Shown: in pieces, positions 3,759 through 60,950 of the stretch
Position numbering within the stretch: the first letter of the stretch is position 1
Layout: each line of letters starts with the position of its first letter
Source: Candidatus Pacearchaeota archaeon
GTDB taxonomy: Archaea; Nanobdellota; Nanobdellia; Pacearchaeales; GW2011-AR1
DNA: 64,000 nt
Reading direction: 5' to 3'
NCBI GenBank assembly: GCA_018304175.1
Contig: JAGVWT010000003.1
Location: 33,982 to 97,981, forward strand
The notes under the pieces: model-generated
Databases searched by the model: none
What the model was told of the DNA's origin: nothing
What the model saw: the letters and a program-made list of their open reading frames with translations, nothing else
Translations under genes and position numbers: made by a program

Positions 3759-5075
3759 ATGAAAAACCCAGAGTTAAAAAAACTAAATGAAAATAGAATT
3801 CTTGCTGAAGATGTTTTTAATGGTAAAGAAAAATATGCAGAAGTTTCAGGATGGGTTCATAATTCTAGAGAGCTTGGAAAAATAAGGTTCATAATCCTTA
3901 GAGATTTTTCAGGAGTTATCCAAATTACAGCTGTCAAAGGAAAAGTTACTGAAGAGATTTTTGACTTGATGAACAAATTAACAAGGGAGTCTGTAGTTTC
4001 AGTTAAGGGAAAAGTTGTTGATTCAAAACAAGCGCCTGGAGGAAAAGAGATTATTCCTGATGAAATTATCATTTTGAATTCCGCAGAAGACTTGCCGATT
4101 GACATCCCGTTTGACCCAAGCGGTGAGACAAAAACAGAATTACCTAAAAGACTTGATTACAGGTTTTTGGATTTTCACAGAAGAAAAATCCAGACAATTT
4201 TTAAAATTCAAACTACAATTGCGACGGCATTCAGGGAGTTTTTTCAAAATAAAAATTATATAGAGATGCAACCACCTTGCATCATTGGTTCTGCCAGCGA
4301 AGGAGGAACCGATTTGTTTGAAGTAAAATATTTTGACAAGAAAGCGTATTTAGCCCAAAGCCCTCAATTGTACAAGCAAATGATCGCATGTAGTATGGAA
4401 AAAACTTTTATGATAACACCTGTATGGCGTGCAGAAAAACATAACACAACGAGACACATAAACGAAATAAGGCAAATGGATATTGAAGTTGCATTTGCAG
4501 GGCAATTTGAAGTGATGAAAGAATTGGAAGAAGTTGTGAAGTTTATTGCTAAAAATGTGATTGAAAAAAACAAAAAAGAATTAGAAATGCTTGGCGTGAA
4601 ACTAAAAATCCCAAAAGCCGTTTATTTGAGTTACGAAGAAGCTATAAAAAAAGTTAATGGAAAACCTGGAGAGGATTTTACGCCTGAGCAAGAAAGAAAA
4701 CTTTGTGAAAAGTATGAAGGAGACATTGTTTTTGTGCATTCATGGCCATCTTCACTGAAGCCTTTTTATATTATGCCTCAAAACGAAAATAAAAATTCAG
4801 ATTTTAGCGAGGGTTTTGATGCTCTTTATGGAGGTATGGAAATTTCTTCTGGCGGACAGAGGATTCATCTCCCTGAATTGTTGATTGAAAGAATAAAATC
4901 AAAAAAACTAAATCCTAAAAATTTTAAAGATTATATTGATTCATTCCGTTACGGAGCTCCACCTCATGCAGGTTGGAGCTTGGGTTTGGAAAGACTAACT
5001 CAAGTAATTTGTAGCTTAAACAACATCAAAGAAGCTACGATGTTCCCGCGAGATAAAGATAGATTGAATCCTTAA
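3759..5075 (+). CDS. aspS: aspartyl-tRNA synthetase, archaeal type (likely non-discriminating)
   Basis: Class II motifs FRAEKHNTTRH, GGMEISSGGQRIH and GAPPHAGWSLGLERL; N-terminal OB anticodon-binding domain; 438 aa. Confidence 0.9.
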   Translation: MKNPELKKLNENRILAEDVFNGKEKYAEVSGWVHNSRELGKIRFIILRDFSGVIQITAVKGKVTEEIFDLMNKLTRESVVSVKGKVVDSKQAPGGKEIIPDEIIILNSAEDLPIDIPFDPSGETKTELPKRLDYRFLDFHRRKIQTIFKIQTTIATAFREFFQNKNYIEMQPPCIIGSASEGGTDLFEVKYFDKKAYLAQSPQLYKQMIACSMEKTFMITPVWRAEKHNTTRHINEIRQMDIEVAFAGQFEVMKELEEVVKFIAKNVIEKNKKELEMLGVKLKIPKAVYLSYEEAIKKVNGKPGEDFTPEQERKLCEKYEGDIVFVHSWPSSLKPFYIMPQNENKNSDFSEGFDALYGGMEISSGGQRIHLPELLIERIKSKKLNPKNFKDYIDSFRYGAPPHAGWSLGLERLTQVICSLNNIKEATMFPRDKDRLNP

Positions 5076-5076
5076 C

Positions 5077-5466
5077 ATGACAGATTTTTTATTTCATAAA
5101 GTTTCCGACGAAGAAAAAGCTGAAATTCAAAGACAGGCGAAAGAGATAATGGACAAATTTTCTGAAAGAATGTCTAAAGTAAAAGCAAAAATTTCAGAGT
5201 CACTTATTGAAAGAAAAGATTTTGAACGAGAAGAGAAAAAGGATATTGCTAATGCTTTTCCACCCAACTCGCGCCCTGACTTTGCTATAAATAACAAAAT
5301 TGCTAAAGTCAAAACACTCGCCCACCCTGAAAAAAATAGTCATTTAAAAGAAAGAAACCAAGCCATTCACTTAAAAGAAAAAGAAGATTTCAGGAGAAGA
5401 ATTCTAGAAAATGCTCCAAATAAAAACAAGGATTTTATCATCGCTGAGAAAAAATCCTGGAAATAA
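5077..5466 (+). CDS. small charged protein in the gatC position (possible GatC-like subunit); otherwise hypothetical
   Basis: Sits between aspS and gatA with a 1-nt gap from aspS and a stop 1 nt before the gatA ATG. Highly charged and helical, with no convincing GatC motif. Confidence 0.3.
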   Translation: MTDFLFHKVSDEEKAEIQRQAKEIMDKFSERMSKVKAKISESLIERKDFEREEKKDIANAFPPNSRPDFAINNKIAKVKTLAHPEKNSHLKERNQAIHLKEKEDFRRRILENAPNKNKDFIIAEKKSWK

Positions 5467-8121: not shown

Positions 8122-8313
8122 TTTTTTAGTCCACAAAAATATTTTTAATCACTTAACACTCAAAAAAATATTTTCCTAGAGTATAGAAATATTTTTAAAG
8201 AACAAGTTCTTCAGTTTTTTATTACATTAGTTTATTCAATTGGGGGATTGAATAAATTAATCTTTGTATTGTCTGAATTCTATTTTAATAGTGTTAAGTA
8301 TGACACATATATA

Positions 8314-8332
8314 AATCTTTCGACGAAAGATT
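8314..8332. promoter_or_regulatory. 19-bp perfect palindrome (aatctttcg a cgaaagatt) abutting a TATA-like box upstream of ftsZ; putative operator
   Basis: Perfect inverted repeat with 9-bp arms, centred about 46 bp upstream of the ftsZ ATG. atatataaat lies at 8307-8316 and ggaggt (SD) at 8351-8356. Confidence 0.5.
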
Positions 8333-8368
8333 TTTTGGAAACAACTGAAAGGAGGTTAATGAAAAAAC

Positions 8369-9448
8369 ATGGTATTAGATTTTGCGAAAGAAGCTATACA
8401 GAATACAGCAACACATAGCATTAACTTTGATGAGTTGAAAGCTGGAAAGGCTAACATCAAGGTTGTTGGTTGTGGAGGAATGGGTGGCAATGCAGTCACA
8501 TGGCTTTATAATAAAGGAATAAACGGCGCAACTGTTTACGCAATAAATACTGATGCTCTTCACTTAAGTGTTACAAAGGCTGATGACAAAATCCTAATCG
8601 GAAAGGAATTAACTCGTGGTCTTGGAGCTGGTGGAAAGCCTCAGGTTGGAAGAGAAGCTACAAAAGAAACTATGGCTGAAATCAAAAAGATGGTTTCTGG
8701 TGCAGATATGGTTTGGGTTGTTGCAGGACTTGGAGGAGGAACAGGAACAGGCTCTGCTCCAGTTGTTGCTCAGATAGCAAAAGAATCAGGTGCTGTAGTC
8801 ATAGGTATTGTAACAATGCCTTTCGAGGCTGAAAAAGCAAGAATTGACAAGGCAGAATTTGGGCTTCAAGAATTGAGAGACCAAACAGACACTTGCATTG
8901 TTCTTGACAACAACAGACTTGTTGACATCGCAGGCCAATTGCCAATTGAGCAGGCATTCGCTGTTGCAAACGAACTTATCTCTACAATGATTAAAGGAAT
9001 TGTTGAGACAATTACATTGCCAAGTTTGATTAACTTGGATTATGCAGACGTTTCAGCAATAATGAAAGGTGGAGGAGTTGCTGTTATTGGAATCGGGGAA
9101 GCTGACACAACAGATAGAGTTAACGAAGCTGTAAAACAGGCTTTGACTCATCCTTTGCTTGATGTTGATTATAGAGGTGCAGATGGAGCTTTAATCCACG
9201 TTACTTGCGGTCCTGATATGAAGCTTGAAGAATTTGAGGCTGTCGGAAGATTAGTCTCTGAAAATTTAAGCCAGGATGCGAATGTTATCATCGGAGCAAG
9301 AATCAACAAAGAATTTCAAGGAAGAGTAAGGGTTATAACAATCATGACTGGTGTGAAGAGTCCATACATAATGGGTAGAGCAACAGAAGACAAAGCATTC
9401 CCTGTATCAAAAGAAATCTCTGATCTTGGTATAGAGGTCTGGAGATAA
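8369..9448 (+). CDS. ftsZ: cell division GTPase FtsZ
   Basis: Tubulin/FtsZ signature GGGTGTGSAPVVA; T7 loop region; 359 aa. Confidence 0.95.
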   Translation: MVLDFAKEAIQNTATHSINFDELKAGKANIKVVGCGGMGGNAVTWLYNKGINGATVYAINTDALHLSVTKADDKILIGKELTRGLGAGGKPQVGREATKETMAEIKKMVSGADMVWVVAGLGGGTGTGSAPVVAQIAKESGAVVIGIVTMPFEAEKARIDKAEFGLQELRDQTDTCIVLDNNRLVDIAGQLPIEQAFAVANELISTMIKGIVETITLPSLINLDYADVSAIMKGGGVAVIGIGEADTTDRVNEAVKQALTHPLLDVDYRGADGALIHVTCGPDMKLEEFEAVGRLVSENLSQDANVIIGARINKEFQGRVRVITIMTGVKSPYIMGRATEDKAFPVSKEISDLGIEVWR

Positions 9449-54376: not shown

Positions 54377-54823
54377 TTATAGGTTTTTAAGTTCCTTCAT
54401 TTCTTTTTTGAAGTCGTTGACATCTTGGAAGTTTCTGTAGACAGATGCGAATCTTATGTATGCTACATTGTCGAGTTTTTTTATTTTTTTCATCGCTATT
54501 TCACCTATTGTCGAAGTTTTGACTTCTTTTTTGCCTTTTTTCCTTAATTGTTCTTCTATTTCGTTAACAATTTCTGTTATCTTTTCTTTGTTTACAGGGC
54601 GTTTTTCAAACGCCTTTTCAATGCCTCTCTCGAGTTTTTCTCTGCTGAACTTTTCCCTTGATTTGTCTTTTTTTATGACGTAAAAGTCACTGCTGTCAAT
54701 CCTTTCATACGTTGTGAATCTTTTTCTACACTTCAAACATTCTCTCCTCCTTCTTATTCCCTGAGAAGATTCTCTTTTGTTTGTTACCTTTATGCTTGTG
54801 CATGAACAGTATGGACATTTCAT
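54377..54823 (-). CDS. nrdR: transcriptional repressor NrdR (zinc ribbon plus ATP-cone)
   Basis: MKCPYCS...RRRECLKCRKRFTTYE and an ATP-cone. The likely start is MKCPYC at 54823 (the track's 54844 start adds 7 residues). Confidence 0.85.
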   Translation of the reverse strand: MKCPYCSCTSIKVTNKRESSQGIRRRRECLKCRKRFTTYERIDSSDFYVIKKDKSREKFSREKLERGIEKAFEKRPVNKEKITEIVNEIEEQLRKKGKKEVKTSTIGEIAMKKIKKLDNVAYIRFASVYRNFQDVNDFKKEMKELKNL

Positions 54824-54967: not shown

Positions 54968-55786
54968 TTACCTAACTTTAACTTTTCTTATTTTACGCGC
55001 TTCATCAATGATTTTTTTTAACTGGCTTTCTGGGATTTTTGTTTTGACTTTCAATTCACCCATGCTGTGCTCAGAAAGATTTTCTACGAGAAAGATGCCT
55101 GCTTGAGTCAATTTCATTTTTGTGTTGTTGTCAATTGATTTTAGAATGGTAATTGGATAAAGTTTTTTTCTTTCTATCAACTCTCTCAGAGATTTTTTTC
55201 CTGGATAATTCCAAGAAGTAATTCTCATGTTTACTCTTTCTGCATAAATGACGGCTTTCTGCGAGAGTTTAGTGTTTGTTGCAATCCAAGGACGGTCAAA
55301 GTGTTTGCTTAAATCAAGAAATCTAGCGTAGACATAGAGGACGACTTTGAGATTTGTGTAAACTCCCGGCGAATTGTGGTATTTGCATTCAATCATGTAT
55401 CTATATTTCTTTCTTGCTATTATATCGACTTCGTGGCTTGTGATTCTTCCGCGTACATTTTGGCCGACTTCTGTTTTATAACCATAATTTTCAAGAACCT
55501 TTGCAAAAAATCTTTCAAACGGAAATCCGGTAGGACCAAGATTCATTATGGCGTTTTTCAAGTCATAAATTGAAGCGATTTCTGGTTTTTGACTTTTAAG
55601 AAGTTGCATCGCGGTGTCAAAAATTTCCCTCGTCGTTATGCCATCGTAAACTTTTCTCTCAACTTCGTTTACAATTTCATCAATAAGTTTATTAGAAGCC
55701 CCGGCACGGAATAATGTCCCCCTTATTTTATTCGGGTTAAATTCCTCTTTTTTTCCTGACGCTTTTATAACATAAACCATTTTCAT
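54968..55786 (-). CDS. ATP-cone domain fused to an Mrr-like (PD-(D/E)xK) restriction-endonuclease domain
   Basis: N-terminus VIKASGKKEEFNPNKIRGTLFRAG...ITTREIFD (ATP-cone). Middle FERFFAKVLENYGYKTEV...HEVDIIARKK..YMIECKYH (Mrr_cat core). Confidence 0.6.
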   Translation of the reverse strand: MKMVYVIKASGKKEEFNPNKIRGTLFRAGASNKLIDEIVNEVERKVYDGITTREIFDTAMQLLKSQKPEIASIYDLKNAIMNLGPTGFPFERFFAKVLENYGYKTEVGQNVRGRITSHEVDIIARKKYRYMIECKYHNSPGVYTNLKVVLYVYARFLDLSKHFDRPWIATNTKLSQKAVIYAERVNMRITSWNYPGKKSLRELIERKKLYPITILKSIDNNTKMKLTQAGIFLVENLSEHSMGELKVKTKIPESQLKKIIDEARKIRKVKVR

Positions 55787-56354: not shown

Positions 56355-58946
56355 ATGACAAAAGTAATTGAAGTAAAAAAACATAGTGGTAATCAAATTG
56401 AGTCAATCTTACACCCATTAGTCAAGGAATGGTTTTTTTCTAAGTTTGAGGATTTCTCGCTGACGCAGAAATATGGTGTAATGAACATATGGGAAAGAAA
56501 AAATATCTTGATTTCAGCGCCGACAGGAGGAACAAAAACGCTTACAGCTTTTCTTTCAGTTTTGAATTATTTAGTAATTCTTGCCGAGAAAAATGAATTG
56601 GAAGACAGAATTTATGCAGTTTACACTTCTCCATTAAAAGCGTTGAGCAACGATATTCATAAAAATTTAATTGAACCTCTTTGGGAAATAAAAGAACTGG
56701 CGAAAAAAAAGGAAGTTAAATTGCAAGATATAAGGGTTGGTTTGAGAACTGGAGATACATCTGTGAGTGAAAGAGCAAAAATGATGAAAAAATCACCACA
56801 TATTTTTGTTACAACACCTGAATCTCTTGCGATAGTTTTGACTAGCAAAAAATTTGTTGAAAAACTAAAGGCTGTAGAATTTTGTATTGTCGACGAAATT
56901 CATGCGATGGATAATAAGAGGGGAACTTATTTGAGTATCACTCTTGAAAGACTTAACGAGATTTCTTCTGTTTTTCCTGTGAAAATTGGATTGAGTGCGA
57001 CTGTGGAACCAATGGAAGAAGTTGCGAAGTACCTTGTTGGCGAAGATGAAAAAAGGGAAGTAAATTTTGTGCGGGTTCCTCTAGATAAAAAAATAAACAT
57101 TGAGGTCTTGACTCCTGTAGATGATTTTATATCTGACAAAAATATCTCAACAAACATGTACTCTTTGATTGATAGATTGATAAAAGAACACAAAACGACT
57201 TTAATTTTTACGAATACAAGGAGTGCTACTGAAAGGGTTGTGAGTCACTTAAAAGATAAGTTTCCAACAGAGTATGGCGATGATAACATTGCCGCGCACC
57301 ATTCTTCATTGAGTAAAAGCCATAGGTTTGACATTGAAGAACGCTTGAGGCAGGGAAAATTAAAAGTAGTAGTCTGCTCTACTTCCTTGGAATTGGGGAT
57401 TGATATTGGATATATTGATTTGGTAATAATGCTGTCTTCTCCAAAGTCATCTTCGAGGGCTTTGCAACGTTTAGGAAGGGCAGGGCATAAACTTCATGAA
57501 ACAGCGAAAGGAAGATTCATAGTTCTTGACAGAGACGATTTAGTTGAATGTAGCGTAATCCAAAAAGAAATGATTGAAAGAAAAATAAACAAAATAAATT
57601 TCCCTCAGAATTGTCTTGATGTTTTGTCGCAGCAGATTTTTGGAATGGCAATTTATAAAATCTGGGACCTAAATGAAATTTTTTCTGTGATTAGGAAAAG
57701 TCATTGTTACAAAAATCTTCCTAGAAAAGATTTTTTAGATGTTATAAGCTACCTTTCTGGAGAGTATGAACTTGAAAAAAACAATATTTACAGCAAAATC
57801 TGGTACGACCAAAAAACAAATCAAATCGGCAAAAAAGGGAAGATGGCTAGAGTTTTGTATTTGACAAATATAGGAACAATTCCTGATGAATCTTTTGTTA
57901 CTGTGAAATTTGCGAGCGGAGAGCAGATTGGTTTTATCGATGAGGGTTTCATGGAAAGGATGAAAAAAGGAGATGTTTTTGTATTGGGCGGGAAGAAATA
58001 TATTTATAGATACACAAGAGGAATGAATCTTTATGTGAATAGTGCTGAACATCTTTCTCCGACAATCCCTTCGTGGTTTTCTGAAATGCTACCATTGAGT
58101 TTTGATACTGCTTTGGAAGTTAACCTCTTCAGAAAAATAATGAGAAATAAACTTGAGTCAAAAACAAAAAAACAAGAAATATTGAAACACATAATGGAAT
58201 ACCTATATGTAAAAAAAGAAACAGCAGAATCGATATACAATTATTTTAACGAGCAGCACAAATTTTTAGAGATACCAAACGAAAATCTTATAATTGTTGA
58301 GAAATACAAGACAGAGAAAAGTTATTTTTTGTTTCATAGCATGTATGGTCGAAGAGTCAATGATGTCTTGTCAAGGGCTTTTGGGTTTTTGATAGGAAGA
58401 ACAGGGAAGAGGGATGTAGAAATTGGAATAAATGATAATGGGTTTTACATTGCCGGAGAAGCTACAATTCAAAATTCTTTAGGGAAGGCAATCAAATTTC
58501 TCGACGAGAAAAACATTGAGGAAGTCTTGAAAGAAGCGATTGAAAAAACAGATGTTTTAATGAGAAGGTTTAGACATTGTGCAGCAAGAAGCTTGATGAT
58601 TCTCAGAAATTATAAAGGAAGGAACAAAACAGTTGGGAAACAGCAGTTAAAAAGTCATTTCCTTCTTCACGCAGTAAGGAAGATAACAAAAGAATTTCCA
58701 ATACTTAGAGAAGCACGAAGGGAAGTAATTGAAGATTTAATGGATTTAGAAAGCGCGAAAAAAGTTTTGAAGTGGATAAAAGAAAAAAAAGTTAAAATTG
58801 TAATTCTTGATACAAATGTTCCGAGTCCTTTCGCAATGAATTTAATACTTCAAGGTTACAGTGATTTAATTAAAATTGAAGATAGGCAGGAATTTTTGAA
58901 GAGAATGCATGAAGAACATTTAAAAGTAATTGGGGGTGAAGAATGA
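56355..58946 (+). CDS. lhr: Lhr-like large superfamily-2 helicase (Lhr core)
   Basis: Motif I SAPTGGTKT, motif II DEIH, motif VI QRLGRAGH, Lhr-type winged-helix and domain 4; 863 aa. Confidence 0.85.
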   Translation: MTKVIEVKKHSGNQIESILHPLVKEWFFSKFEDFSLTQKYGVMNIWERKNILISAPTGGTKTLTAFLSVLNYLVILAEKNELEDRIYAVYTSPLKALSNDIHKNLIEPLWEIKELAKKKEVKLQDIRVGLRTGDTSVSERAKMMKKSPHIFVTTPESLAIVLTSKKFVEKLKAVEFCIVDEIHAMDNKRGTYLSITLERLNEISSVFPVKIGLSATVEPMEEVAKYLVGEDEKREVNFVRVPLDKKINIEVLTPVDDFISDKNISTNMYSLIDRLIKEHKTTLIFTNTRSATERVVSHLKDKFPTEYGDDNIAAHHSSLSKSHRFDIEERLRQGKLKVVVCSTSLELGIDIGYIDLVIMLSSPKSSSRALQRLGRAGHKLHETAKGRFIVLDRDDLVECSVIQKEMIERKINKINFPQNCLDVLSQQIFGMAIYKIWDLNEIFSVIRKSHCYKNLPRKDFLDVISYLSGEYELEKNNIYSKIWYDQKTNQIGKKGKMARVLYLTNIGTIPDESFVTVKFASGEQIGFIDEGFMERMKKGDVFVLGGKKYIYRYTRGMNLYVNSAEHLSPTIPSWFSEMLPLSFDTALEVNLFRKIMRNKLESKTKKQEILKHIMEYLYVKKETAESIYNYFNEQHKFLEIPNENLIIVEKYKTEKSYFLFHSMYGRRVNDVLSRAFGFLIGRTGKRDVEIGINDNGFYIAGEATIQNSLGKAIKFLDEKNIEEVLKEAIEKTDVLMRRFRHCAARSLMILRNYKGRNKTVGKQQLKSHFLLHAVRKITKEFPILREARREVIEDLMDLESAKKVLKWIKEKKVKIVILDTNVPSPFAMNLILQGYSDLIKIEDRQEFLKRMHEEHLKVIGGEE

Positions 58947-59458
58947 TTAATAATTTAATAAAATCCCTTACTGAAAGTGAAAGAAAACTTTTGGTTGAAA
59001 ACAATAGAGTTGAGGGAGAGGATTTTTTTGAAGCTCATGAAGATGCTGCTTTGGCCTGGTGTTACGCGAAAGCAGAAAGACTTAGACCTGCTACTCTAAA
59101 CTATGTAAAAAATATTCATTATGCTTTAATGAGAAGACTTAATCCTGAAATAGCTGGAAGATTCAGGGAAAAAAAAGTTTATGTCGGAAACAGGGATGAT
59201 TGTTCTCTTCCAGGAAAAGTTAAATCAGATATGGAGAAATGGTGTAAAGAATTTAATCTAGCAAAAAAAGATGAGGATGAAATAATAAAGGAATATATAA
59301 GGTTCATGAAAATTCATCCTTTTGAAGATGGAAACGGCAGGACAGGAAGAATATTAATGAACATTCAGAGAATTAATAATGGATATGGTTTGCACATAAT
59401 AATGAGGTCTGATAAAATTGTTCAAGGAGAAGATGATTATTACGGTTTGTTTAGATAA
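58943..59458 (+). CDS. fic: Fic/Doc-family (Fido) protein
   Basis: Canonical Fic motif HPFEDGNGRTGR; start ATGA overlaps the lhr stop; 171 aa. Confidence 0.8.
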   Translation: MINNLIKSLTESERKLLVENNRVEGEDFFEAHEDAALAWCYAKAERLRPATLNYVKNIHYALMRRLNPEIAGRFREKKVYVGNRDDCSLPGKVKSDMEKWCKEFNLAKKDEDEIIKEYIRFMKIHPFEDGNGRTGRILMNIQRINNGYGLHIIMRSDKIVQGEDDYYGLFR

Positions 59459-59459
59459 A

Positions 59460-59855
59460 ATGAAAACAAAAACAGAAAAGGATTTTGCGAAAACTGTGCT
59501 TGATCTAACAAAAACAAAAGAAGAGAGAATTCAGGCTGCGTTTCATTTGGAGAATGCACTGAATGATGAATCTATAAGAAAACTTGGAAAAGCGCTTTTG
59601 ACAGAACCTTCACCAATTGTGAGGCATGAATTTGCGTTTTCCCTCGGTGAAAATGCTAAACCTAAAATAGCAAGTCCTTACTTAATGAAAGCTGTTGAAG
59701 AAGATGAAAATATTTTCGTGAGACATGAAGCGTTGCTCGCCTTAGCAACATTAAACGATAAGTCAGTAATTCCTTTTATAGAAAAATTTCTTAATTCTCC
59801 TGAAGAAGAAATCAGGGAAAGTGCTGAGATTGCACTTCAGAGGTTGAGAAATTAA
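59460..59855 (+). CDS. HEAT/PBS-lyase-repeat protein
   Basis: Repeated ...VRHEFAFSLGE... and ...VRHEALLALATL... HEAT-like units. The ATG at 59460 directly follows the fic stop. Confidence 0.55.
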   Translation: MKTKTEKDFAKTVLDLTKTKEERIQAAFHLENALNDESIRKLGKALLTEPSPIVRHEFAFSLGENAKPKIASPYLMKAVEEDENIFVRHEALLALATLNDKSVIPFIEKFLNSPEEEIRESAEIALQRLRN

Positions 59856-60168
59856 ATAAATTAGGCAATCGGAATTCCTTGAAATTTTTTTTTAATATTT
59901 CACCTATTGTCGAAGTTTTGACTTCTTTTTTGCCTTTTTTCCTAAATTGTTCTTCTATCGATTTATCTATCTTCTCTCTTACGATATTTCTTCCATATAA
60001 AGTTAATCCCTGAACCAAAGCACCATTGCCATTTCTCCTAATCTCGTTTATCGCTTCGTCCACATAATTATTAATTTCGTTTGCGTTCCAGTTTGGAAAT
60101 CCAGCCAATATATTACTCCTTAAATCATTTTCAGTCCAGTCAAAAGTATATGGTAAATCTCTTCCCAT
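59812..60168 (-). CDS. small chimeric ORF carrying a 62-bp near-identical copy of an nrdR ATP-cone segment; possibly a gene fragment
   Basis: Encodes IEEQFRKKGKKEVKTSTIGEI. DNA 59897-59958 is about 95% identical to 54498-54559 inside nrdR. Confidence 0.4.
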   Translation of the reverse strand: MGRDLPYTFDWTENDLRSNILAGFPNWNANEINNYVDEAINEIRRNGNGALVQGLTLYGRNIVREKIDKSIEEQFRKKGKKEVKTSTIGEILKKNFKEFRLPNLFNFSTSEVQSQHFP

Positions 60169-60218
60169 TTTTAAATAAAATTACTAAGCTTTTTAAGCAT
60201 TTATCTTCTTGAAAATAT

Positions 60219-60950
60219 ATGGAACAGAAATTCGTTTTTATAGACAAAACCGTGTTTTTTCCTGAGTATGGGATTTTAGTAATCGGAGATTTGCATGTTG
60301 GTTACGAGCATTCGTTGAGGGATTCTGGTGTTATGATTCCTGAAAGTCAGACTGATGATACAATAAAAAATTTACAAGAAATAATAAATGAAATAAAAAG
60401 ACAAAATTGGAATATCAAAAAAATTGTTTTTCTTGGAGACATAAAGCACTATTTTGGTTATGAGTGGAAGGAGAGGGTTTATTTTAACAAAATACTTGAC
60501 TTTTTAAGAAAATATGTAAAAGATTCAGGAATTGTTTTGATAAAAGGAAATCATGACAAGTTCGACTTTTCCGGAAAGAAAATGAAAAATTATTTTATAA
60601 AGGATGGAATCGCATTTTTCCATGGTCATATGTCTTATAATCAAGTCAGTGACGAAAAAATAAAAATTTGGGTTATTGGGCATTTGCATCCTTCAATAAT
60701 GTTAAGCGACAAGCAAAACATAAAGCGAGAAAAATACAAGTGTTTTCTCGTCGGAGAATTTAATAGTAGAGAAGTTATAATTGTCCCAAGTTTTTTGGGA
60801 ATAATTGAGGGGACTTCTGTAAATGAAGAAGGATACGAAAATGAAAAAGAATTCTCAATTATTCCTCACGATGCGATAAAAAGTTTTAATGCTTATGTTG
60901 TTGATGAGAAAGGAAAAGTTCTTGATTTTGGAAAAGTAAGAAAGTTATGA
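60219..60950 (+). CDS. metallophosphoesterase (possibly Lhr-associated MPE-type)
   Basis: IGDLHVG, FLGDIKHYF, GNHDKF, GHMS, GHLHP motifs. Confidence 0.7.
   Translation: MEQKFVFIDKTVFFPEYGILVIGDLHVGYEHSLRDSGVMIPESQTDDTIKNLQEIINEIKRQNWNIKKIVFLGDIKHYFGYEWKERVYFNKILDFLRKYVKDSGIVLIKGNHDKFDFSGKKMKNYFIKDGIAFFHGHMSYNQVSDEKIKIWVIGHLHPSIMLSDKQNIKREKYKCFLVGEFNSREVIIVPSFLGIIEGTSVNEEGYENEKEFSIIPHDAIKSFNAYVVDEKGKVLDFGKVRKL

Follow-up and report, generated by a model that had tools for sequence, protein, structure and literature searches.

A Compact Fic Gene in the Variable Gap between Lhr Helicase and Metallophosphoesterase Genes of Pacearchaeota

Introduction

Why does a gene for a Fic-domain protein sit directly behind a helicase gene of a repair gene pair in an archaeon? 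The question is raised by a 64,000-nucleotide (nt) stretch of DNA from a Candidatus Pacearchaeota archaeon (assembly GCA_018304175.1, contig JAGVWT010000003.1, positions 33,982 to 97,981), hereafter called the window. In it, the gene for the helicase Lhr is followed closely by genes for a Fic protein of 171 amino acid residues (aa) and a small HEAT-repeat protein, here called HEAT, with the gene for a metallophosphoesterase (MPE) farther along (Table 1). A preliminary description of the window named these four genes correctly, as judged by Pfam and NCBIfam profile matches, and offered two explanations. Either Fic and HEAT are a toxin–antitoxin-like pair, in which HEAT inhibits a Fic that lacks an inhibitory helix, or the helicase is controlled by AMPylation.

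The answer reached here is a different one. The window Fic is a minimal form of a known class, located in a known operon that here takes a form specific to the lineage, and Fic and HEAT are independent genes. The reading that we favor, with restrained confidence, is that Fic is an accessory, self-inhibited, toxin- or defense-like cargo gene in a plastic slot between Lhr and MPE.

Fic and HEAT Are Independent Genes

Gene orders were compared in 75 Lhr loci from species-representative genomes, which, together with further contigs, were scanned for the window proteins; the loci carry our own numbers. The order of the window, Lhr–Fic–HEAT–antisense open reading frame (ORF)–MPE, recurs in L011. A tightly coupled Lhr–Fic–MPE order is found in L006 and L167, the order Lhr–antisense ORF–Fic–MPE in L002/L003 and L001 (the ORF of L001 being unrelated), and Lhr–Fic–180-aa ORF–MPE in L079. 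In L008, L081/82, L255, and L256/57, the order is Lhr–HEAT–MPE, with genes that overlap or nearly abut and no Fic. In L083 and L085, HEAT lies away from Lhr, and the Lhr locus has neither Fic nor HEAT. That is, Fic occurs without HEAT in five loci (L001, L002, L006, L079, and L167), and HEAT occurs without Fic in four loci at the same slot (L008, L081, L255, and L256) and in two elsewhere (L083 and L085). The two genes also differ in conservation: relatives in other assemblies share no more than 57% identity with the window Fic, versus 60–85% for HEAT. Fic and HEAT are thus two independent cargo genes and do not form a unit.

This bears on the proposal that the two work like a toxin and its antitoxin, with HEAT occluding the active site of Fic. 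In the window, the stop of Fic and the start of HEAT are a single nt apart, the same order is found in L011, and HEAT repeats are generally protein-binding scaffolds. The layout resembles that of the class I systems VbhT–VbhA and FicT–FicA in that the window Fic gene is followed by a tightly coupled small gene. However, the class I antitoxin provides the SxxxE(G/N) helix in trans, whereas the window Fic carries such a helix itself. The (S/T)xxxE(G/N) motif was sought in both HEAT and the antisense ORF and is absent from both. Unlike the class I antitoxins, HEAT does not co-vary with Fic, and it corresponds to half of a deoxyhypusine hydroxylase (DOHH), with invariant His-Glu motifs. The premise of the pair fails because Fic carries its own N-terminal inhibitory-type motif. 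With this motif, a class II fold, and the separate occurrence of the two genes, the pair is refuted as it was proposed, and we give it next to no credence.

The Lhr–MPE Pair and Its Variable Gap

The window Lhr has the Pfam domains DEAD, Helicase_C, WH_Lhr, and DEAD_assoc, in that order, corresponding to an SF2 DExH core, the Lhr winged helix, and "domain 4". It passes the archaeal equivalog model NF010338 (1133.8 bits versus a cut-off of 849) and stays below the cut-off of the bacterial ligase-associated model TIGR04121 (542 versus 850); it is an archaeal Lhr-core helicase, probably of the aLhr2 type. The orthologues at the 75 Pacearchaeota loci are 64–82% identical to it, and the close loci all come from metagenome-assembled genomes of Pacearchaeota, Woesearchaeota, or Nanoarchaeota. 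A Fic with 100% identity is likewise filed under Ca. Pacearchaeota in NCBI, in agreement with a DPANN source. Two archaeal-type Lhr loci carry bacterial labels: L045 (71% identity, MPE downstream) is labeled Candidatus Paceibacterota, and L069 (50% identity, no MPE found) is labeled Fraserbacteria. Mislabeling, mis-binning, or gene transfer may account for these labels.

The window MPE matches PF00149 and has all of the binuclear metallophosphoesterase motifs, GDLH, GDIKH, GNHD, and GHLH. It clears the cut-off of the archaeal SbcD-related phosphoesterase model TIGR00024 marginally (117.8 bits versus 115.2) and, unlike a bacterial PdeM, lies under the cut-off of TIGR04123 (88.5 versus 150). In 57 of the 65 informative Pacearchaeota loci, Lhr is followed by an MPE gene of the same orientation, and Lhr–MPE is thus a conserved repair gene pair in this group. 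The pairing was described earlier as one known from bacteria. It is indeed found there, as in P. putida (PMC7826289), but it is not confined to bacteria, as a TIGR00024 phosphoesterase adjoining alhr2 has already been published for DPANN and other archaea (PMC8301817). The window pair has in common with the bacterial Lhr–MPE and the archaeal aLhr2–TIGR00024 pairs the four-domain Lhr-core and a binuclear metallophosphoesterase encoded downstream on the same strand. Among the window ORFs examined, a ligase or exonuclease partner was not seen.

The gap between the two genes is far from uniform. Across the 57 Pacearchaeota loci it ranges from −1 to 5,496 nt; it is 150 nt or less in 19 loci, 150–600 nt in another 13, and exceeds 600 nt in the other 25. 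Clustering of the 107 ORFs found in these gaps with three window ORFs (Fic, HEAT, and the small ORF) gave 78 clusters. In the Pfam census of the gaps, HepT, MNT, ParE, and Fic occur four times each. HepT–MNT is found in L042, L047, L052, and L075, and VapBC (VapB with a PIN protein) in L066. Restriction–modification cargo consists of a MjaI endonuclease and a DNA methylase, the methylase in L030. Further gap genes encode RadC, a protein with a weak TIR-like match, and the metabolic enzymes SAICAR synthetase, prephenate dehydratase, and aspartate-semialdehyde dehydrogenase. The Lhr–MPE gap in Pacearchaeota is therefore a plastic cargo slot, with much of the recognizable cargo belonging to toxin–antitoxin or restriction–modification systems, and it may be a hotspot, flanked by core genes, for defense or toxin–antitoxin systems. 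A variable cargo slot between Lhr and MPE is not described in the literature found on the pair.

The Window Fic Is a Minimal Class II Fic Protein

The Fic protein matches PF02661 with an E value of 1.8e-15 (58 bits versus a cut-off of 24). As the preliminary description stated, its catalytic motif HxFx(D/E)GN(G/K)RxxR is intact, reading H125-PFEDGNGRTG-R136. Residues P126, D129, G130, N131, G132, R133, and R136 are invariant in Fic relatives, and H125 is nearly so. The AF2 model, for which an alignment without three locus-derived sequences was used, has a pLDDT of 92.4 and a pTM of 0.89 and predicts a helical core with strands at residues 81 and 84, in line with the Fic core and its β-hairpin flap before helix α4. 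Foldseek matches this model to human FICD, Clostridium difficile Fic (CdFic), and NmFic with a probability of 1.00. The best of the matches are class II Fic proteins, namely FICD (TMq 0.72–0.76), CdFic (0.75), and BT_2513 of Bacteroides, and FICD is also the top match in a profile search of the PDB with the Fic family (E 4e-23).

In class II Fic proteins, as established for FICD, for SoFic, and for the class generally, a glutamate of the inhibitory helix blocks productive ATP binding. The N-terminus of the window Fic, L-L-V-E-N20-N-R-V-E24-G25, agrees with the inhibitory consensus (S/T)xxxE(G/N) except that Asn replaces Ser, and the model places this motif at the C-terminal end of a helix. The family was aligned as 122 sequences, i.e., the window protein and 121 relatives, four from related loci and the rest from a search of 5.8 billion proteins. 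The N-terminal family motif is F-L-x-E-S-N-x-I-E, in which Ser is found in 120, Asn in all 122, Ile in 116, and Glu in all 122. When a profile of the N-terminal 45–50 residues was run against the whole PDB, the single Fic match was wild-type CdFic, residues 25–37 (HNFLYHSNKIEGS), at an E value of 0.23; it spans CdFic S31 and E35 in exact register, and these are the residues altered in the PDB entries titled "mutant S31A, E35A". A phmmer search of the PDB with the N-terminal consensus gave no inhibitory-motif match. Thus, the earlier view that the window Fic has no inhibitory helix is wrong. We conclude that the protein is a minimal class II, putatively self-inhibited AMP-transferase, with the caveat that its N-terminal motif is ambiguous in a hhalign comparison given below.

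The catalytic motif and the fold are common to the window Fic and to the class II proteins FICD/HYPE, CdFic (PDB 4x2c/d/e), and BT_2513 (3cuc). Further likenesses are the N-terminal helix, ending in ...IE-G here and in FLYHSNKIEG in CdFic, and the flap, where IAGRFR...V.VG resembles EAGRFRTTQVLVG of FICD. In contrast to these proteins, which are 215–458 aa long, the window Fic has 171 aa. The stretch that leads from the inhibitory helix to the following core helix is shorter in the family by some 18–29 residues, the chain ends just past a YY(K/G)(W/L)F stub of helix α7, and the window protein is without TPR, wHTH, or other accessory domains.

Relatives of the Window Fic

The Fic relatives fall into a set tied to Lhr and a much larger set that is not. 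All seven relatives from other assemblies that are 44–57% identical to the window Fic and have a readable context lie between Lhr and MPE. It follows that close homologues are not scattered without an Lhr association, an outcome that the preliminary description had allowed for. Within this Lhr-linked clade, pairwise Fic identities are 44–75% (44–55% to the window copy in that matrix), and the Lhr proteins of the same loci are about 72–82% identical to the window Lhr. When the Lhr proteins are arranged in a neighbor-joining tree, every locus that has Fic, HEAT, or both in the slot falls within a single subclade; in the corresponding Fic tree, the Lhr-linked copies form one clade except for that of L006, which sits nearby. 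Both trees are without support values. A recent horizontal arrival of Fic is rejected, as its GC content of 0.318 matches the 0.328 of the genome. The trees, the Fic and Lhr identities, and this match indicate that the Fic–Lhr association is old in the subclade and that several losses have taken place.

Beyond this clade, 160 more distant Fic loci have no HEAT, Lhr, or MPE nearby save for one helicase match on the opposite strand with 25% identity, in L163. A metagenome scan with the Fic family profile returned distant relatives only (at most 49% identity over short segments), again with no Lhr, HEAT, or MPE nearby except for this 25% helicase match, and served as a negative control. In IMG/VR, 452 viral contigs encode Fic relatives (L175–L254 among the loci). 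The best 77 of these 452 have a median length of 167 aa, with the N-terminal motif present in 74 and the Fic motif in 75. The compact Fic family is also seen in L004, L168, and L170. The relatives P0016, P0036, and P0044 are surrounded by phage-like gene arrays; the P0044 contig is 102 kb long and has genes for a bacterial-type PolIIIα, UDG, and RecA nearby. The relative P0024 adjoins an IS1595 transposase gene on an archaeal contig. The wider Fic family is largely virus-borne and, outside the clade, is not linked to Lhr.

PADLOC matches the window Fic to the defense candidate PDC-S04 (E 1.4e-19) and to SoFic (E 4.5e-17), in the core only. Against the full-length SoFic model NF046030, it scores 37.6 bits (cut-off 550), with only residues 95–169 matching. 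Like the single-gene defense candidates SoFic and PDC-S04, the window Fic has this core and is a standalone gene in a slot with cargo of toxin–antitoxin and restriction–modification type. Unlike SoFic, it lacks a regulatory C-terminal domain, and its closest wider relatives are viral and are not in defense islands.

Accessory Cargo or Repair Regulator?

The accessory-cargo reading is favored because the slot gathers toxin–antitoxin and restriction–modification modules and because most Lhr–MPE pairs, including close relatives, have no Fic. Of the 57 Lhr–MPE loci at species level, only about four carry Fic. Members of the same Lhr subclade that lack it are L008, L059, L081, L255, and L256, and these show that Lhr–MPE works without it.

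We infer the following scheme. Lhr, Fic, and HEAT would be co-transcribed, and Fic would be translated from the Lhr message through the coupled stop and start. Glu24 would keep Fic inactive by blocking productive ATP binding, and once this block is relieved, Fic would AMPylate some target. Needing no partner antitoxin, it would act as a single-gene toxin- or defense-like accessory module and not as a built-in part of repair. In the Lhr subclade of the window, the slot holds two cargo genes, for a conserved half-size DOHH-like HEAT protein and for a minimal Fic of about 170 aa, and the compact form is the tight Lhr–HEAT–MPE operon.

Several observations weigh against this scheme, and they concern both self-inhibition and the role as cargo. 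As to the former, the motif alignment to CdFic covers just 13 residues at its E value of 0.23, and a global hhalign of the family against a FICD sequence aligns the N-terminus with near-zero confidence and sets the helix against the FICD helix that follows αinh. The Ser/Thr four residues before the inhibitory Glu is missing from the window Fic, and the protein departs from the consensus at two more positions of the inhibitory helix, F16L and I23V. Because N20, F16L, and I23V fall in the same helix, auto-inhibition is possibly weakened. In addition, CdFic is reportedly active despite its motif. As to the latter, all readable relatives in the 44–57% range keep their place between Lhr and MPE across several micro-arrangements, and Fic is tightly coupled to Lhr (window, L006, and L167) or to MPE (L001, L002, and L167). 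The Lhr-linked Fics are up to 56% divergent, so that the position has been kept longer than expected of a purely selfish insert, and the GC content argues against a recent arrival.

These last observations suit the main rival, in which Fic is a dedicated repair regulator that is co-expressed with Lhr and switches helicase or nuclease activity by AMPylating Lhr, MPE, or a partner of both. The position is retained despite rearrangements of the neighboring genes, stop/start overlaps or gaps of 1–5 nt join Fic to Lhr or MPE, and these Fics, L006 apart, form one clade within a single Lhr subclade. Set against this are the rarity of Fic at Lhr–MPE loci and its absence from the five loci of the same subclade, the viral and never Lhr-linked character of the wider family, and the lack of support values for the trees. 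Control of Lhr by AMPylation is further weakened because the slots of sister lineages hold HepT–MNT, ParE, VapBC, and restriction–modification genes. Overall, a regulatory role strikes us as unlikely.

A second rival has Fic as an inert, decaying passenger without function. The patchy distribution with its several inferred losses is in line with decay, and the window Fic deviates at five positions that are at least 90% conserved (F16L, S20N, I23V, H118Y, and W169L). On the other hand, the ORF is intact, every residue of the catalytic motif is kept, the AF2 model is confident, an identical Fic protein is found on 14 contigs, and across the clade the gene has been kept without frameshifts at 44–75% pairwise identity. 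An inert passenger is therefore improbable, and Fic as accessory cargo remains the reading that we prefer.

HEAT Is Homologous to Each Half of DOHH

HEAT matches PF13646 with an E value of 5e-15, and the Pfam families HEAT_2 and HEAT_PBS are matched. In a phmmer search of the PDB, the best natural match is human DOHH (4d4z; E 6.9e-20), the enzyme that completes hypusine on IF5A by hydroxylating deoxyhypusine, and the alignment of HEAT with either half of that protein runs over the full length of HEAT. H56-E57 and H89-E90 of HEAT are in register with the DOHH His-Glu pairs at chain positions 56–57/89–90 and 207–208/240–241, which we take to be the metal ligands. The AF2 model of HEAT (pLDDT 97) has eight helices, forming four repeats, and the top Foldseek match is again 4d4z (TMq 0.86, rmsd 1.7 Å), with a TMt of 0.41 corresponding to coverage of half of DOHH. 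More than 100 homologues in Pacearchaeota and related DPANN are 60–85% identical, and the JGI pipeline labels some of them "deoxyhypusine monooxygenase". HEAT, as judged by alignment and modeling, is a half-size DOHH homologue with both predicted His-Glu metal motifs.

DOHH (4d4z) has eight HEAT repeats and four His-Glu motifs in one chain, whereas the archaeal window protein has four repeats and two motifs and would need to dimerize to form a comparable di-iron site. We tentatively propose that HEAT is a presumably homodimeric, half-size deoxyhypusine hydroxylase, i.e., a candidate archaeal DOHH, which in this subclade lies inside the Lhr–MPE operon. A co-inherited Fic that AMPylates Lhr or MPE to control repair is less likely than this. 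In L085, about 3 kb separate the half-DOHH gene (8230–8619), which adjoins rpL1/L10, from the gene for aIF5A (5001–5402), and in L083, the half-DOHH gene precedes a gene for a YchF/OLA1-like GTPase. Both surroundings are translation-related, and the proximity to aIF5A in L085 is only suggestive. Archaeal DOHH homologues have been stated not to be identified (PMC7432094), and the literature searched contains no link between DOHH and DPANN.

Organization of the Window Locus

The coordinates are collected in Table 1. The Fic ATG shares the tetranucleotide ATGA with the TGA stop of Lhr (58943–58946), in agreement with the overlap noted in the preliminary description. A Shine-Dalgarno-like GGGGGTGA precedes the Fic ATG and may serve as a ribosome-binding signal; together with the ATGA overlap, it suggests that Fic is translationally coupled to Lhr. 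One nt lies between the Fic TAA and the HEAT ATG, a spacing given correctly before, although HEAT has 131 rather than 132 residues.

Table 1. Positions of genes and sequence features in the window
Feature	Position	Strand	Length	Remark
Lhr	56355..58946	+	863 aa	First gene of unit
Shine-Dalgarno-like GGGGGTGA	58930..58937	+		Within Lhr 3' end, 5 nt before Fic ATG; read from sequence
Fic	58943..59458	+	171 aa	
Inhibitory-helix-type motif N20-N-R-V-E24-G25	59000..59017	+		C-terminal end of helix 11–23 (AF2)
Fic catalytic motif H125-PFEDGNGRTG-R136	59315..59350	+		Intact HxFx(D/E)GN(G/K)RxxR; read from sequence
HEAT	59460..59855	+	131 aa	HEAT-repeat protein
HEAT His-Glu motif H56-E57	59625..59630	+		Invariant in 55 homologues
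HEAT His-Glu motif H89-E90	59724..59729	+		Invariant in 55 homologues
Antisense small ORF	59812..60168	-	118 aa	
MPE	60219..60950	+	243 aa	
Direct repeat	59872..59958 and 54473..54559		87 nt	nrdR segment, 86% identical
ATP-cone/Mrr-type fusion protein	54968..55786	-	272 aa	Between nrdR and Lhr

The co-oriented, coupled unit of the window is Lhr–Fic–HEAT. MPE follows on the same strand, and its start lies 363 nt after the HEAT stop, close to the 360 bp first reported; the interval is not empty, since the antisense ORF, overlooked in the preliminary description, occupies part of it. MPE is set apart from Lhr–Fic–HEAT because this convergent ORF intervenes, and co-translation of MPE with the unit in the window is rejected on the same ground. 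A scan for sigma-70 promoters and terminators gave matches no commoner than in shuffled sequence, with a model not relevant to an archaeon.

Upstream of Lhr, a 272-aa protein combines an ATP-cone, an Mrr-type restriction-endonuclease-like domain, and an AF1548-like C-terminal domain. The same arrangement is kept upstream of Lhr in L006, L059, and L081.

The Antisense ORF and the nrdR Repeat

The antisense ORF is convergent with HEAT, the 3' ends overlapping by 44 nt, and divergent from MPE. It has no Pfam or NCBIfam match, and a homologue search returned only itself. At 31–33% identity, homologues are found in L002 (3051–3371, minus strand) and L011 (7210–7542, minus strand). Its C-terminal third derives from a copied fragment of the nrdR ATP-cone coding sequence, with which it shares the peptide GKKEVKTSTIGEI. 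The duplication of this 87-nt nrdR fragment points to recent recombination in the slot.

Could this ORF encode the partner of Fic, as a regulator or antitoxin that moved into the slot together with it? Its sole detectable homologues (L002/L003 and L011) are in Fic-carrying loci, none of the Lhr–HEAT–MPE loci without Fic has it, the ORF of L002 is divergent from Fic across about 100 nt, and next to SoFic there is a small antitoxin, AS1 (PMC12249575). Against such a partnership, the ORF is missing from the Fic loci L006, L167, and L079, and the ORF of L001 is unrelated. It lies on the opposite strand, at a position relative to Fic that varies by locus; it has no domain match, no wider family, and no SxxxE(G/N) motif; and the C-terminal third of the window copy is a recent nrdR-derived chimera. 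We therefore regard a Fic–antisense ORF partnership as quite doubtful.

Implications

To summarize, an attractive but unsupported story of a Fic–HEAT toxin–antitoxin pair in a repair operon is removed, and a testable one takes its place, in which a variable slot bounded by Lhr and MPE in Pacearchaeota gathers Fic genes as well as those of toxin–antitoxin and restriction–modification systems. Bacteria provide many well-described examples of such landing pads flanked by core genes, and DPANN archaea have received little attention in this respect. The analysis also defines a compact class II Fic family of about 165 aa that is abundant on viral contigs. This family may come close to the smallest self-inhibited Fic found in nature and could be convenient for studies of mechanism. 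Of greatest interest among the side results is that HEAT corresponds to half of DOHH, as it provides a concrete candidate protein for deoxyhypusine hydroxylation in archaea.

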